Made by a program: the position numbers and the translations under genes. 64,000 nucleotides of DNA from Escherichia coli (GTDB lineage: Bacteria > Pseudomonadota > Gammaproteobacteria > Enterobacterales > Enterobacteriaceae), in the NCBI RefSeq assembly GCF_017348835.2, contig NZ_CP071375.1. One strand, 5' to 3'. Positions 56,437 through 61,894 of this stretch are shown piece by piece. The notes under the pieces are model-generated. The model was not told the origin of the DNA. It searched no databases and saw only the letters and a program-made list of their open reading frames with translations. The stretch's first letter is position 1, and each line of letters starts with the position of its first letter.

Positions 56437-56699
56437 ATAATCAGTTACATCAATGAGTCCTAAACGAAATCCATGTGTGAAGTTGATCACAAATTTAAAC
56501 ACTGGTAGGGTAAAAAGGTCATTAACTGCCCAATTCAGGCGTCAACTGGTTTGATTGTACATTCCTTAACCGGAGGGTGTAAGCAAACCCGCTACGCTTG
56601 TTACAGAGATTGCATCCTGCAATTCCCGCTCCCCTTTTGCGGCCGTCGCGCTGATTTTTCTGGCGTTTGCGGAAATGGGCCAACTCTGCGAGGAAAGCT

Positions 56700-58202
56700 A
56701 TGCTGAAAAGGAAAAAAGTAAAACCGATTACCCTTCGTGATGTCACCATTATTGATGACGGTAAACTGCGTAAAGCCATTACCGCAGCATCACTGGGTAA
56801 TGCAATGGAATGGTTCGATTTTGGTGTTTATGGTTTTGTTGCTTACGCATTAGGTAAAGTTTTTTTCCCGGGGGCTGACCCCAGCGTGCAGATGGTTGCT
56901 GCACTTGCCACGTTCTCCGTTCCCTTTCTGATTCGACCGCTTGGCGGACTCTTCTTTGGTATGTTGGGCGATAAATATGGTCGCCAGAAGATCCTCGCTA
57001 TCACTATTGTGATTATGTCGATCAGTACGTTCTGTATTGGCTTAATACCATCCTACGACACGATTGGTATTTGGGCACCGATTCTGCTGTTGATCTGTAA
57101 GATGGCACAAGGTTTCTCGGTCGGCGGTGAATATACCGGGGCGTCGATATTTGTTGCGGAATACTCCCCTGACCGTAAACGTGGCTTTATGGGCAGCTGG
57201 CTGGACTTCGGTTCTATTGCCGGGTTTGTGCTGGGTGCGGGCGTGGTGGTGTTAATTTCGACCATTGTCGGCGAAGCGAACTTCCTCGACTGGGGCTGGC
57301 GTATTCCGTTCTTTATTGCTCTGCCGTTAGGGATTATCGGGCTTTACCTGCGCCATGCGCTGGAAGAAACTCCGGCGTTCCAGCAGCATGTTGATAAACT
57401 GGAACAGGGCGACCGCGAAGGTTTGCAGGATGGCCCGAAAGTCTCGTTTAAAGAGATTGCCACCAAACACTGGCGCAGCCTGTTGACATGTATTGGTCTG
57501 GTAATTGCCACCAACGTGACTTACTACATGTTGCTGACCTATATGCCGAGTTATTTGTCACATAACCTGCATTACTCCGAAGACCACGGGGTGCTGATTA
57601 TTATCGCCATTATGATCGGTATGCTGTTTGTTCAGCCGGTGATGGGCTTGCTGAGTGACCGTTTTGGCCGTCGTCCGTTTGTGCTACTTGGTAGTGTTGC
57701 CCTGTTTGTGTTGGCGATCCCGGCGTTTATTCTGATTAACAGTAACGTCATCGGTCTGATTTTTGCCGGGTTACTGATGCTGGCGGTGATCCTTAACTGC
57801 TTTACGGGCGTTATGGCTTCTACCTTGCCAGCGATGTTCCCGACGCATATCCGTTACAGCGCGCTGGCGGCGGCATTTAATATTTCGGTGCTGGTTGCCG
57901 GTCTGACGCCAACATTGGCGGCCTGGCTGGTCGAAAGCTCGCAGAATCTGATGATGCCAGCCTATTACCTGATGGTAGTGGCGGTGGTTGGTTTAATCAC
58001 CGGCGTAACCATGAAAGAGACGGCAAATCGTCCGTTGAAAGGTGCAACACCGGCGGCGTCAGATATACAGGAAGCGAAGGAAATTCTCGTCGAGCATTAC
58101 GATAATATCGAGCAGAAAATCGATGATATTGACCACGAGATTGCCGATTTGCAGGCGAAACGTACCCGCCTGGTGCAGCAACATCCGCGAATTGATGAAT
58201 AA
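56700..58202 (+). CDS. proP: Proline/glycine betaine:H+ symporter (MFS) with C-terminal coiled coil
   Basis: 500 aa from MLKRKKVKPITLRDVTIIDDGKLRKAI; 12 TM segments; coiled-coil tail. Confidence 0.96.
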   Translation: MLKRKKVKPITLRDVTIIDDGKLRKAITAASLGNAMEWFDFGVYGFVAYALGKVFFPGADPSVQMVAALATFSVPFLIRPLGGLFFGMLGDKYGRQKILAITIVIMSISTFCIGLIPSYDTIGIWAPILLLICKMAQGFSVGGEYTGASIFVAEYSPDRKRGFMGSWLDFGSIAGFVLGAGVVVLISTIVGEANFLDWGWRIPFFIALPLGIIGLYLRHALEETPAFQQHVDKLEQGDREGLQDGPKVSFKEIATKHWRSLLTCIGLVIATNVTYYMLLTYMPSYLSHNLHYSEDHGVLIIIAIMIGMLFVQPVMGLLSDRFGRRPFVLLGSVALFVLAIPAFILINSNVIGLIFAGLLMLAVILNCFTGVMASTLPAMFPTHIRYSALAAAFNISVLVAGLTPTLAAWLVESSQNLMMPAYYLMVVAVVGLITGVTMKETANRPLKGATPAASDIQEAKEILVEHYDNIEQKIDDIDHEIADLQAKRTRLVQQHPRIDE

Positions 58203-58255
58203 GCTGAAACAGATGGCCTGATGTGACGCTGTCTTATCAGACCAACAATTGAACT

Positions 58256-58272
58256 CTTAAGGTTCACTTAAT
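58256..58272 (+). promoter_or_regulatory. Candidate PmrA (BasR) box upstream of pmrR
   Basis: CTTAAG-gttca-CTTAAT direct hexamer repeat with 5-bp spacer, 45 bp upstream of the pmrR ATG. Confidence 0.65.
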
Positions 58273-58316
58273 CTCTGACGCGCATACTCTCCTCCAGGTT
58301 AACGGAGGAGAGTGCA

Positions 58317-58406
58317 ATGAAAAACCGTGTTTATGAAAGTTTAACTACCGTGTTCAGCGTGCTGGTGGTCAGCAGCTTTCTTTATATCTGGTTTGCCACG
58401 TACTGA
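58317..58406 (+). CDS. pmrR: 29-aa membrane peptide PmrR
   Basis: ATG...TGA encoding MKNRVYESLTTVFSVLVVSSFLYIWFATY; overlaps the 3' end of basS on the opposite strand by 25 bp. Confidence 0.8.
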   Translation: MKNRVYESLTTVFSVLVVSSFLYIWFATY

Positions 58407-59473
58407 TCTTTCTTCAGCCGTATCCAGGCGCGCGTGCCAGAAGTCTCTTGCCGGTTTTGCAGGAAAAACTGCCCGTGATGCAACTGTGTAATGCGGCTGA
58501 CAATACTTAACCCCAGACCAATCCCGCCATAACGGCTGTCCATTCGTACAAACGCTTTACTCAACTCCCCGCATTTACTCTCATCAATACCCGGTCCTTC
58601 ATCTTCAACGGCCATGACCGCTCCGTCATCTTCTTGCAGCTTAATCATAATGTTGCTGCCTTGCGGGCTGTAACGATGGGCGTTTTCTACCAGATTTCGC
58701 AATAACATCCGCAGCAGGGTTGCATCACCCTGAACGGTGATGTCGGCGGCGCTCTCTGGCAATAGCAGGGTTTGCTGGCGCTGGTCGAGCATGGTACTGA
58801 GTTCGTCATACGAGGGGAGAATGACATCTTCCAGCAGTTTTACATGTTGATAATTACCGGAAGAAAATGACTGTCCGGCACGCGCCAGTTGCAGCAGCTG
58901 GGAGACGCTCTCCATCATCTGATCAAGCCGTGCCACTAACGGTGCTACATCAATGTGATGCGTTTTCGCCAGCAGTTCCAGATGCAAACGTACCCCCGCC
59001 AGTGGCGTTCGCAGTTCGTGCGCGACGTCAGCGGTAAATAACCTTTCGTTATCCAGCGTGCTGGTCAGGCGACTGACTAGATCGTTCAACGCCGAAACCA
59101 CCGCTTCGATTTCGAGGGTGGCGCTGTGAATGGCAATGGGCGTTAAGTTGTCGGCGGTGCGCGCTTCCAGCTCTTTTTGCAGCTCCGCCAGCGGGCGGGT
59201 GATGCGGCGTACCGCCTGATAGCAGATAAATAGCGTCAGGCTGACCATAAAGACGCCGGGGACAATCAGGCTGGCGACCGCCTCGCGGATCTCACGCATG
59301 ATGTGGCGATCGTTGTTGCGATTGTCGCGTAGCGCCTGCTCAAACAGCTGAATCTGCTCGGTACTTTCATGCCATAGCCAGAAGACGCTGATCAGCTCAA
59401 ACACCAACAAAATGGCCCCGATGGTCAATATCAGCCGTTGGCGCAGCGATATTGGTCGGCGCAGAAAACGCAT
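58382..59473 (-). CDS. basS: Two-component sensor histidine kinase BasS/PmrB
   Basis: 363 aa from M(R)FLRRPISLRQRL; H-box ADVAHELRTP; the ORF-track start at 59482 is the alternative. Confidence 0.93.
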   Translation of the reverse strand: MRFLRRPISLRQRLILTIGAILLVFELISVFWLWHESTEQIQLFEQALRDNRNNDRHIMREIREAVASLIVPGVFMVSLTLFICYQAVRRITRPLAELQKELEARTADNLTPIAIHSATLEIEAVVSALNDLVSRLTSTLDNERLFTADVAHELRTPLAGVRLHLELLAKTHHIDVAPLVARLDQMMESVSQLLQLARAGQSFSSGNYQHVKLLEDVILPSYDELSTMLDQRQQTLLLPESAADITVQGDATLLRMLLRNLVENAHRYSPQGSNIMIKLQEDDGAVMAVEDEGPGIDESKCGELSKAFVRMDSRYGGIGLGLSIVSRITQLHHGQFFLQNRQETSGTRAWIRLKKDQYVANQI

Positions 59474-59482
59474 CAGATTCAA

Positions 59483-60151
59483 TTAGTTTTCCTCATTCGC
59501 GACCAGCATATAGCCAAAGCCGCGCACGGTGCGGATACGGGCTTTGCCCACTTTGTCGCGCAGATTGTGGATATGCACTTCCAGGGTGTTGGTCGAGGGT
59601 TCATTGTCCCAGTTATAGATGTCGTTGTAGAGAATTTCCCGATGTACCGGACTGCCTGCTTTGAGCATTAACCGTGACAGCAGAGCATATTCTTTGGGCG
59701 TCAGAATCAACTCTTCACCGCCCATCCATACCTGACGGCGACCCATATTCAGCGTCAGATTGCCAACAATCAGCTCACTTTCGCCCTGATTATTATGGCG
59801 TCGTAGCAGGGCGCGGATACGGGCGTGTAACTCTTCCAGCGCAAAAGGCTTCACCAGATAGTCATCGGCACCGACATCCAGCCCGGCGATTTTGTCGGTC
59901 AGCGTATCGCGAGCGGTGAGGATCAGTACCGGCAGGGTGTATTTTTTCTGCCGGATACGGGCGAGAAAATGCAGTCCATCTTCGTCGGGTAACCCTAAAT
60001 CCAGTACTACCAGGCTGTAATGACCGGCCTCAAGGCTTTGTTCCGCCATCCGCGCGGTTGTCACGCCATCGCACGCGTAGCCTTCGGTTTGCGCCGCCAG
60101 AATCAGTCCCTGCAATAACAGCGTATCGTCTTCAACAATCAGAATTTTCAT
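59483..60151 (-). CDS. basR: Two-component response regulator BasR/PmrA (OmpR family)
   Basis: 222-aa [22 protein letters not shown]... Confidence 0.96.
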
Positions 60152-61837: not shown

Positions 61838-61854
61838 ATTAAGCCAACCTTAAG
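61838..61854 (-). promoter_or_regulatory. PmrA (BasR) box of the eptA-basRS promoter
   Basis: Minus-strand CTTAAG-gttgg-CTTAAT about 50 bp upstream of the eptA start; part of a longer palindrome. Confidence 0.7.
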
Positions 61855-61894
61855 TTCTTAAGGTTGGCTTTTATCTTTGCTGGATTAAGGGGAA

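Follow-up and report, generated by a model that had tools for sequence, protein, structure and literature searches.

pmrR at the 3′ end of basS in Escherichia coli: a known PmrA-activated small-protein gene with a short convergent overlap and a conserved hairpin at its ribosome-binding site

The pmrR gene and its place beside basS

We analysed the convergent junction between the small gene pmrR and the sensor-kinase gene basS (pmrB) in 64,000 nt of Escherichia coli DNA from contig NZ_CP071375.1 (this whole stretch is called the window, and positions are counted from its first letter). The gene order at the junction is proP (plus strand), pmrR (plus), basS (minus), basR (minus) and eptA. We give a probability of about nine in ten to the reading that the feature is the known gene pmrR, with its known PmrA promoter, its known peptide and role towards the lipid A enzyme LpxT, and with an overlap with basS that is incidental. 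The gene, its promoter box, its translation and the overlap are all already in databases and in print, and the present analysis adds nothing new to them. The features of the junction are as follows.

58317..58406, plus strand: pmrR coding sequence, encoding a 29-residue inner-membrane peptide (from a profile match, the ratio of non-synonymous to synonymous polymorphism (pN/pS) and the K-12 annotation)
58304..58310, plus strand: Shine-Dalgarno sequence GGAGGAG of pmrR, read from the sequence, with the core GGAGG at 58304..58308
58382..59482, minus strand: basS (pmrB), sensor histidine kinase gene (NCBIfam NF008025, 644 bits; RefSeq annotation)
58382..58406, both strands: 25-bp stretch shared by pmrR (codons 22–29 and stop codon) and basS (last 7–8 codons and stop codon)

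An earlier note, made from the sequence alone, had described a 29-codon open reading frame (ORF) for a peptide with a single membrane span, had named it pmrR and had placed it antisense to the last 25 bp of basS. Each of these statements agrees with what we found. The ORF at 58317..58406 encodes the 29-residue product MKNRVYESLTTVFSVLVVSSFLYIWFATY and ends with the stop codon 58404..58406, its hydropathy reaches a maximum of 2.18 (15-residue window, residues 12–26), which fits one transmembrane segment, and exactly 25 bp are shared with basS, whose stop codon TAA lies at 58384..58382. An ORF of 29 codons is not significant by itself, as the surrounding 5.5-kb stretch is overlapped by 80 ORFs with 20 codons or more. 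The name is borne out by the RefSeq annotation, by the K-12 gene b4703 and by the profile NCBIfam NF033224 (LpxT activity modulator PmrR), which matched residues 1–29 on model positions 1–29 with 74.2 bits (cut-off 30, E = 5e-21). A Pfam search with the peptide returned no family, and its sole match (11.9 bits) was meaningless.

In K-12 MG1655, pmrR (b4703) occupies 4332116..4332205 and basS 4332181..4333272, and the overlap is likewise 25 bp. Between the PmrA box and the pmrR stop codon, both included, the window and K-12 have the same DNA; the closest differences are 3 bp inserted in the window at 58243..58245, two substitutions upstream of the box and changes inside basS. The window gene is thus the same gene as the pmrR of Salmonella enterica and E. 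coli: its peptide is identical to the K-12 peptide, and its locus has the PmrA-box promoter and the 25-bp overlap in common with the K-12 locus (PMC8129183, PMC8004244). Of 5426 complete E. coli genomes, 5408 were matched by a query with the 321-bp junction, and proP, pmrR and pmrB were annotated in the matches listed from that search; the earlier suggestion that small ORFs of this kind are easily missed does not apply to pmrR, which carries an annotation in all of those listed matches.

Conservation of PmrR across genera

The comparison set was built through PmrB, and a scan with BasS returned 80 pmrB loci, among them none from Salmonella; the nearest outgroup was Citrobacter amalonaticus (84% PmrB identity). 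A convergent ORF, mostly of 29–30 codons, was present at the pmrB 3′ end in 54 of the 80 loci, from ∼20 genera of Enterobacteriaceae that include Escherichia, Citrobacter, Klebsiella, Raoultella, Kosakonia and Kluyvera as well as Phytobacter, Pseudocitrobacter, Trabulsiella, Pluralibacter and Yokenella. Peptide length is 29–30 residues in 50 of 52 distinct peptides, and the median of the best hydropathy window over the 52 homologues is 2.62. Escherichia and C. amalonaticus apart, identity to the E. coli peptide is 17–50%; residues F21 and W25 never vary, the small residue before F21 is kept, and the C-terminus usually reads W-x-x-[TS]-[YF]. Moreover, pN/pS was 0.15–0.27 in four clades, which shows that pmrR is a real protein-coding gene under purifying selection. 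No recognisable pmrR-like ORF was seen at the pmrB 3′ end in loci L010, L015, L019, L033, L034, L044, L046 and L082, nor in the Pectobacterium/Rahnella-type loci L064..L081. Hence pmrR is widespread in Enterobacteriaceae while not universal there, and none turned up among the more distant Enterobacterales of the sample.

The PmrA promoter of pmrR

58256..58272, plus strand: PmrA (BasR) box CTTAAG-N5-CTTAAT (CTTAAGGTTCACTTAAT), an exact YTTAAK-N5-YTTAAK, 44 nt before the pmrR ATG
58283..58288, plus strand: putative −10 hexamer CATACT, of the form NANACT, exactly 10 nt 3′ of the box
61838..61854, minus strand: second exact PmrA box, in the promoter of the eptA-basRS operon (pattern match)

The boxes at 58256 and 61838 are the only two exact YTTAAK-N5-YTTAAK matches in the 64 kb, compared with 0.09 expected. 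Each of the 54 pmrR loci has a box with at most one mismatch 40–46 nt ahead of the start codon, in line with the earlier observation that a PmrA-type box precedes the ORF. That pmrR answers to the regulator encoded in one operon with basS, as had also been supposed, agrees with the identity of the gene and with the loss of PmrR function in E. coli once the box was deleted (PMC8129183).

Across 49 distinct upstream regions T58288 of the NANACT motif is invariant, and A58284, A58286 and C58287 are nearly so. The eptA promoter has the same geometry, in which the box is followed after 10 nt by GAGCAT. We read NANACT at 58283..58288 as the −10 element, and, because the arrangement of box, 10-nt spacing and NANACT is conserved, pmrR transcription probably starts near 58295/58296. 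A literature search for distances between PmrA boxes and transcription start sites yielded nothing usable. An upstream in-frame ATG, which would give a 42-residue ORF in two Escherichia lineages, was rejected as the pmrR start: it lies upstream of the putative transcription start and is absent from the window. In the proposed course of events, phosphorylated BasR (PmrA) would bind the box at 58256..58272, which would substitute for a −35 element, and transcription beginning near 58295 would give the mRNA for the single-span, 29-residue peptide. The GAGG of the ribosome-binding site is invariant or nearly so across genera.

PmrR and the choice at lipid A position 1

In the membrane, the basic N-terminus of PmrR would face the cytoplasm, with the conserved F21, W25 and C-terminal T-Y near the periplasmic face. 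By genetic evidence from E. coli the peptide inhibits LpxT, which adds the second phosphate at position 1 of lipid A; this leaves the position free for phosphoethanolamine from EptA, by which resistance to polymyxin rises and resistance to deoxycholate falls. Tian et al. removed the PmrA box alone from E. coli, sparing the operon, and a pmrA-constitutive strain without the box was polymyxin-sensitive and deoxycholate-resistant; deletion of lpxT reversed its polymyxin sensitivity (PMC8129183). PmrR decides whether position 1 carries a second phosphate or phosphoethanolamine, a trade-off between polymyxin and bile-salt resistance (PMC8129183), which makes pmrR relevant to resistance against last-line antibiotics.

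The peptide itself has been detected. By Ribo-RET, a translation-initiation profiling method, Vellappan et al. found PmrR among 17 small proteins induced at low Mg2+, and His-tagged PmrR was recovered in the membrane fraction of E. coli (PMC11429745); ribosome occupancy and tagged-peptide detection, the checks suggested in the earlier note, have thus given positive results in published work. The same study reported that a pmrR start-codon mutant fails to complement a deletion, and that excess PmrR is harmful when there is no stress. Like PmrR, MgrB and MgtS of the PhoPQ/PmrAB network are short single-span peptides induced by the same stress network; they bind and modulate a larger membrane protein (PMC11429745). 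They differ in their targets, PhoQ for MgrB and MgtA and PitA for MgtS, and in lacking a convergent overlap with a kinase gene. No sequence relation between PmrR and either peptide was seen, as the PmrR model was the only one matched in the profile search.

A conserved hairpin over the ribosome-binding site

58286..58313, plus strand: conserved hairpin, with the left arm at 58286..58295 (−10 and start region) and the right arm at 58304..58313 (ribosome-binding region)

The left arm of this hairpin (ACTCTCCTCC, 58286..58295) spans the end of the −10 hexamer and the putative start site, and it pairs with the right arm (GGAGGAGAGT, 58304..58313), which is the ribosome-binding site of pmrR. The fold has −19.9 kcal/mol (z = −5.3), and almost every one of the 54 pmrR loci has an equivalent of it, made up of other sequences. 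Covariation was scored on 49 distinct sequences: 81% of cells pair, compared with 37–50% when the partners were slid, and 41 cells were changed on both sides, compared with 7–16 in the slid controls; one pair occurs as AU, CG, GC and GU. Two bases in the right arm, A58311 and G58312, hardly vary, and the one role evident for them is to pair with the −10 hexamer's C and T. The hairpin is more stable on the plus strand in 29 cases against 18, by a mean of 1.44 kcal/mol, a statistic that ignores the relatedness of the sequences, and most of its wobble pairs become A-C mismatches on the other strand. The minus-strand version of E. coli is equally stable (−20.3 kcal/mol). An RNA that starts at 58296 is unstructured (−2.4 kcal/mol, z = +1.4).

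Published plus-strand RNA 3′ ends fall at the pmrR start codon, at K-12 4332117 in the TRS data and 4332116 in the Term-seq data, which correspond to 58317/58318 of the window. The two data sets are independent, and these ends lie 4–5 nt 3′ of the hairpin. A canonical intrinsic terminator of basS or proP was considered for 58286..58313 and rejected, as neither strand has a U-tract after the hairpin. A neighbouring ORF was found at 27 loci, and at each of these except one the gene upstream of pmrR runs in the same direction, with spacers down to 55 nt. In Escherichia and C. amalonaticus the upstream gene is proP, in most other genera uvrB. At some loci (L041, L061) the uvrB stop codon is ∼55 nt from the pmrR ATG and is abutted by the PmrA box, so that there is no room for a terminator of uvrB's own.

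These observations can be brought together if the hairpin is an insulator and a promoter-selective gate on pmrR translation. Read-through RNA from proP or uvrB would hold both arms, and the ribosome-binding site of pmrR would be locked in it, while the hairpin would set a stable 3′ end of the upstream mRNA at the start codon of pmrR; RNA initiated at the PmrA promoter would start at the end of the left arm and leave the ribosome-binding site open. We hold this tentatively, at somewhat less than even odds. The strong and covarying fold, its preference for the plus strand, the unstructured RNA from 58296, the coinciding 3′ ends, the closely spaced co-directional upstream genes and the two near-invariant bases facing the −10 hexamer all argue for it, and a gate would suit the report that unscheduled PmrR is harmful (PMC11429745). 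On the other side, the pmrR start is placed by promoter geometry, and a start upstream of 58286 would turn the hairpin into part of a normal 5′ untranslated region; the comparison of strands does not take account of how the sequences are related; the E. coli fold is no weaker on the minus strand; and the lack of a U-tract means that the upstream 3′ end would not be formed by a canonical terminator.

The arrangement has a likeness among mobile elements. In the fold-back inhibition of IS10 and IS50 transposase, reportedly described by Davis, Simons and Kleckner in 1985, the inverted repeat of a read-through RNA is said to hide the ribosome-binding site. In the pmrR hairpin, likewise, the left arm would coincide with the start site or precede it, and the right arm is the ribosome-binding site, so that only transcripts from outside would fold. 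It differs in that pmrR is a chromosomal stress-response gene and not part of a mobile element, that its left arm overlaps the −10 hexamer, and that the hairpin also marks the 3′ end of an upstream mRNA.

Relation to the Rfam family STnc630

The Rfam model RF02052 (STnc630), an enterobacterial small RNA candidate, matches 58248..58413 of the plus strand over its full length with 181.8 bits (gathering threshold 55), that is, the same DNA and the same hairpins as the pmrR locus. Taken at face value, this strong match would make the locus a non-coding small RNA, instead of or besides a peptide gene. We consider this very improbable. Model positions 9–25 of RF02052 are the PmrA box, and as this is promoter DNA the family does not have the boundaries of an RNA; its consensus structure includes the hairpin 58286..58313. 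The peptide is under purifying selection, the start-codon mutant does not complement the deletion (PMC11429745), and a literature search for STnc630 gave no papers. RF02052 is filed as a non-coding small RNA and its DNA is a promoter with a peptide-coding gene, and hence it looks like a mis-filed family.

The 25-bp coding overlap

In Escherichia the overlap is in phase 0, with the third codon positions of pmrR and basS on the same base pairs, the least constraining arrangement. Across genera the overlap, measured from pmrB stop to pmrR stop, ranges from −8 to +57 bp and takes all three relative phases, as the following lengths illustrate.

25 bp: Escherichia
4 bp: C. amalonaticus and Raoultella
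22 bp: Klebsiella
0 bp: many genera
−6 bp: most Kluyvera
42 bp: some Kosakonia
57 bp: Pseudocitrobacter

In PmrB the overlapping part is in every case C-terminal to RAW(I/V)x(F/L), the last conserved motif, within a tail of variable length and sequence; in E. coli it falls in the variable tail after RAWIRL. The pmrR side carries the most conserved residues of the peptide, W25 to Y29. The BasS tail QYVANQI looks like the passive partner; in other Escherichia species, for instance, the PmrR changes A27V and A27T are accompanied by changes of the BasS residue opposite. Extra constraint in the 3′ part of basS, which could have pointed to a functional antisense element, was sought and not found in the last 300 nt among Escherichia species, where 3–9 sites per 30 nt are variable, as elsewhere in the gene. 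Because length and phase vary, the PmrB tail is variable and the basS 3′ part shows no extra constraint, we lean towards the coding overlap being a by-product of tight tail-to-tail packing and not a dedicated device, the variable C-terminal tail of BasS presumably running across the conserved last codons of pmrR by chance.

Several observations weigh against the reading of pmrR as an LpxT modulator that overlaps basS incidentally. The growth defects of E. coli strains with pmrR deleted or overexpressed are independent of lpxT (PMC11429745), so LpxT may not be the sole target of PmrR. The tail-to-tail arrangement is kept in ∼20 genera, the two stop codons being separated by 8 nt at most, and this conserved convergence could reflect selection for transcript overlap. 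Furthermore, in the work of Xu et al. both pmrB mRNA (∼315-fold) and colistin resistance changed with how much DNA was retained downstream of pmrB: clones with 86 bp of downstream DNA had ∼315-fold less pmrB mRNA than those with 126 bp and conferred no resistance to colistin, resistance was partial with 103 bp, and the half-life of pmrB mRNA was unchanged (PMC8004244). Placed on the window from the authors' description, the +86 end point is 58296, inside the loop of the hairpin, so that the hairpin is cut and the −10 element removed; +103 is 58279, just upstream of the −10 element, so that hairpin and −10 are kept without the box; and +126 is 58256, exactly where the PmrA box begins. The effect thus appears to track the promoter and hairpin elements of pmrR, and, since the end points fall on these elements, some element of the pmrR/basS junction affects basS expression in cis. 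The hairpin on the minus strand is possibly the 3′ end of basS mRNA in E. coli, which would fit the difference between the +86 and +103 clones and counts against the hairpin being a gate on pmrR translation.

Overlapping transcripts and the antisense idea

58407..58669, plus strand: pmrR-sense RNA antisense to basS (from the published 3′ end at 58506 and the Rho-dependent region near 58669)
58360..58384, plus strand: weak terminator-like hairpin and T-run inside the pmrR coding sequence (6-bp stem with three G-C pairs, then GCTTTCTTTA)

The earlier note had proposed that the convergent overlap gives antisense interference between the regulator and its own target, an idea that would fail if transcripts stopped before the overlap. 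They do not. For pmrR, the TRS study gave a plus-strand 3′ end at 4332305 of K-12 (58506 in the window), 100 nt past the pmrR stop codon and 125 nt into basS, and Adams et al. reported a plus-strand Rho-dependent termination region antisense to basS at K-12 4332468 (Rho score 8.6, p = 2.7e-37), which is 58669. K-12 positions were converted with an offset of 4273799; there are no indels in 58400..58530, and the gene spans agree with K-12. Pattern scans found no intrinsic terminator after the pmrR stop codon on the plus strand and none between the basS stop codon and proP on the minus strand. With no terminator between the two genes, their transcripts necessarily overlap, and plus-strand RNA extends from 125 to ∼290 nt antisense into basS, where Rho stops it.

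The weak hairpin at 58360..58384 is probably unimportant. Its fold (−9.4 kcal/mol, z = −0.8) is no better than those of shuffled sequences, and the two published 3′-end tables, under the gene names queried, contain no end there. It was also rejected as the terminator of the upstream gene, the mapped 3′ ends being at 58317/58318 instead.

Physical crossing of the overlap is therefore established for the plus-strand RNA, and this part of the antisense proposal stands; interference with either gene is hypothetical, and the length of the overlap is unconserved. The pair has been listed elsewhere, among 165 convergent excludons detected in at least 50% of MG1655 RNA-seq samples by ExcludonFinder (PMC12288877), so that the mechanism is a reasonable idea already catalogued by others. 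Such a call is nearly automatic for two expressed genes with overlapping annotated coding sequences. Like other convergent excludons, pmrR and basS have converging, overlapping transcripts, and the likeness rests on this and not on a reciprocal effect or on RNase III processing. The classic excludon has mutually exclusive expression, whereas pmrR and basS are induced by one activator, PmrA, whose boxes serve both units (58256 for pmrR and 61838 for eptA-basRS); since PmrA activates both, the regulatory logic speaks against mutually exclusive expression.

If the overlap were nevertheless a working device, an excludon or antisense governor that trims the output of BasS or PmrR, PmrA would fire both promoters, and either pmrR-sense RNA would pair with the eptA-basRS mRNA in its 3′ part or polymerases would collide; read-through of the operon may moreover occlude the pmrR promoter, and feedback at the RNA level may be added. 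The plus-strand ends beyond the overlap, the lack of a minus-strand terminator between basS and proP, by which the operon transcript must cross pmrR, the entry in the excludon list, the tail-to-tail order kept in ∼20 genera and the influence of DNA downstream of pmrB on its mRNA level (PMC8004244) are in favour of such a device. We nonetheless judge it unlikely. Besides the near-automatic nature of the excludon call, the two units share an activator and are needed simultaneously, basS shows no added conservation over its final 300 nt, the overlap varies in length and phase, and inclusion of the pmrR promoter raised pmrB mRNA in the clones of Xu et al. and did not lower it (PMC8004244). In addition, induction of arnT stayed 50-fold after deletion of the pmrR box (PMC8129183), which is a weak test, as the level of BasS may be irrelevant in the pmrA-constitutive strain used.

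A wider scheme, which we regard as doubtful, would join the hairpin with the antisense RNA and make proP-pmrR-basS a terminator-free three-way RNA junction, in which the hairpin gates pmrR translation to PmrA-initiated RNA and forms the 3′ end of the upstream mRNA, and the PmrA-driven pmrR transcript, extending 125–290 nt antisense into basS up to its arrest by Rho, lowers BasS synthesis. If true, this lowering would add a brake at the RNA level to the known feedback through PmrR, LpxT and Fe3+. Likewise, should either the transcript overlap or the hairpin tune the PmrAB circuit, this could explain the effect of downstream DNA seen by Xu et al. (PMC8004244).

Neighbouring genes and other observations

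56667..58202, plus strand: proP, upstream of pmrR
59483..60151, minus strand: basR (pmrA), response regulator and activator of pmrR (NCBIfam NF007928, 390 bits)

After the proP stop codon, at 58218..58245 of the plus strand, there is a REP-like palindrome (GCCTGATGTGACGCTGTCTTATCAG...), and the 3-bp insertion at 58243..58245 together with substitutions relative to K-12 weakens its outer part. The longest basS ORF starts at a TTG that abuts the basR stop codon (window 59474..59482, minus strand); it has 366 residues and is the PGAP call in strain PE164, and the K-12 start is annotated 9 nt downstream of this TTG (363 residues). At 61841..61870, on both strands, a palindrome with a 13-bp stem and a T-run looks like the terminator of adiC and contains the PmrA box of the eptA promoter; the published adiC 3′ end (K-12 4335633) maps to ∼61834, within the T-run.

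In E. coli PI7, a pig isolate (L083, 3615..4463), an IS1 begins ∼60 nt after the pmrR stop codon; basS, basR, eptA and adiC are missing and yjdF is next, while pmrR and its promoter are retained, and the strain is a natural pmrAB deletion with an orphan pmrR.

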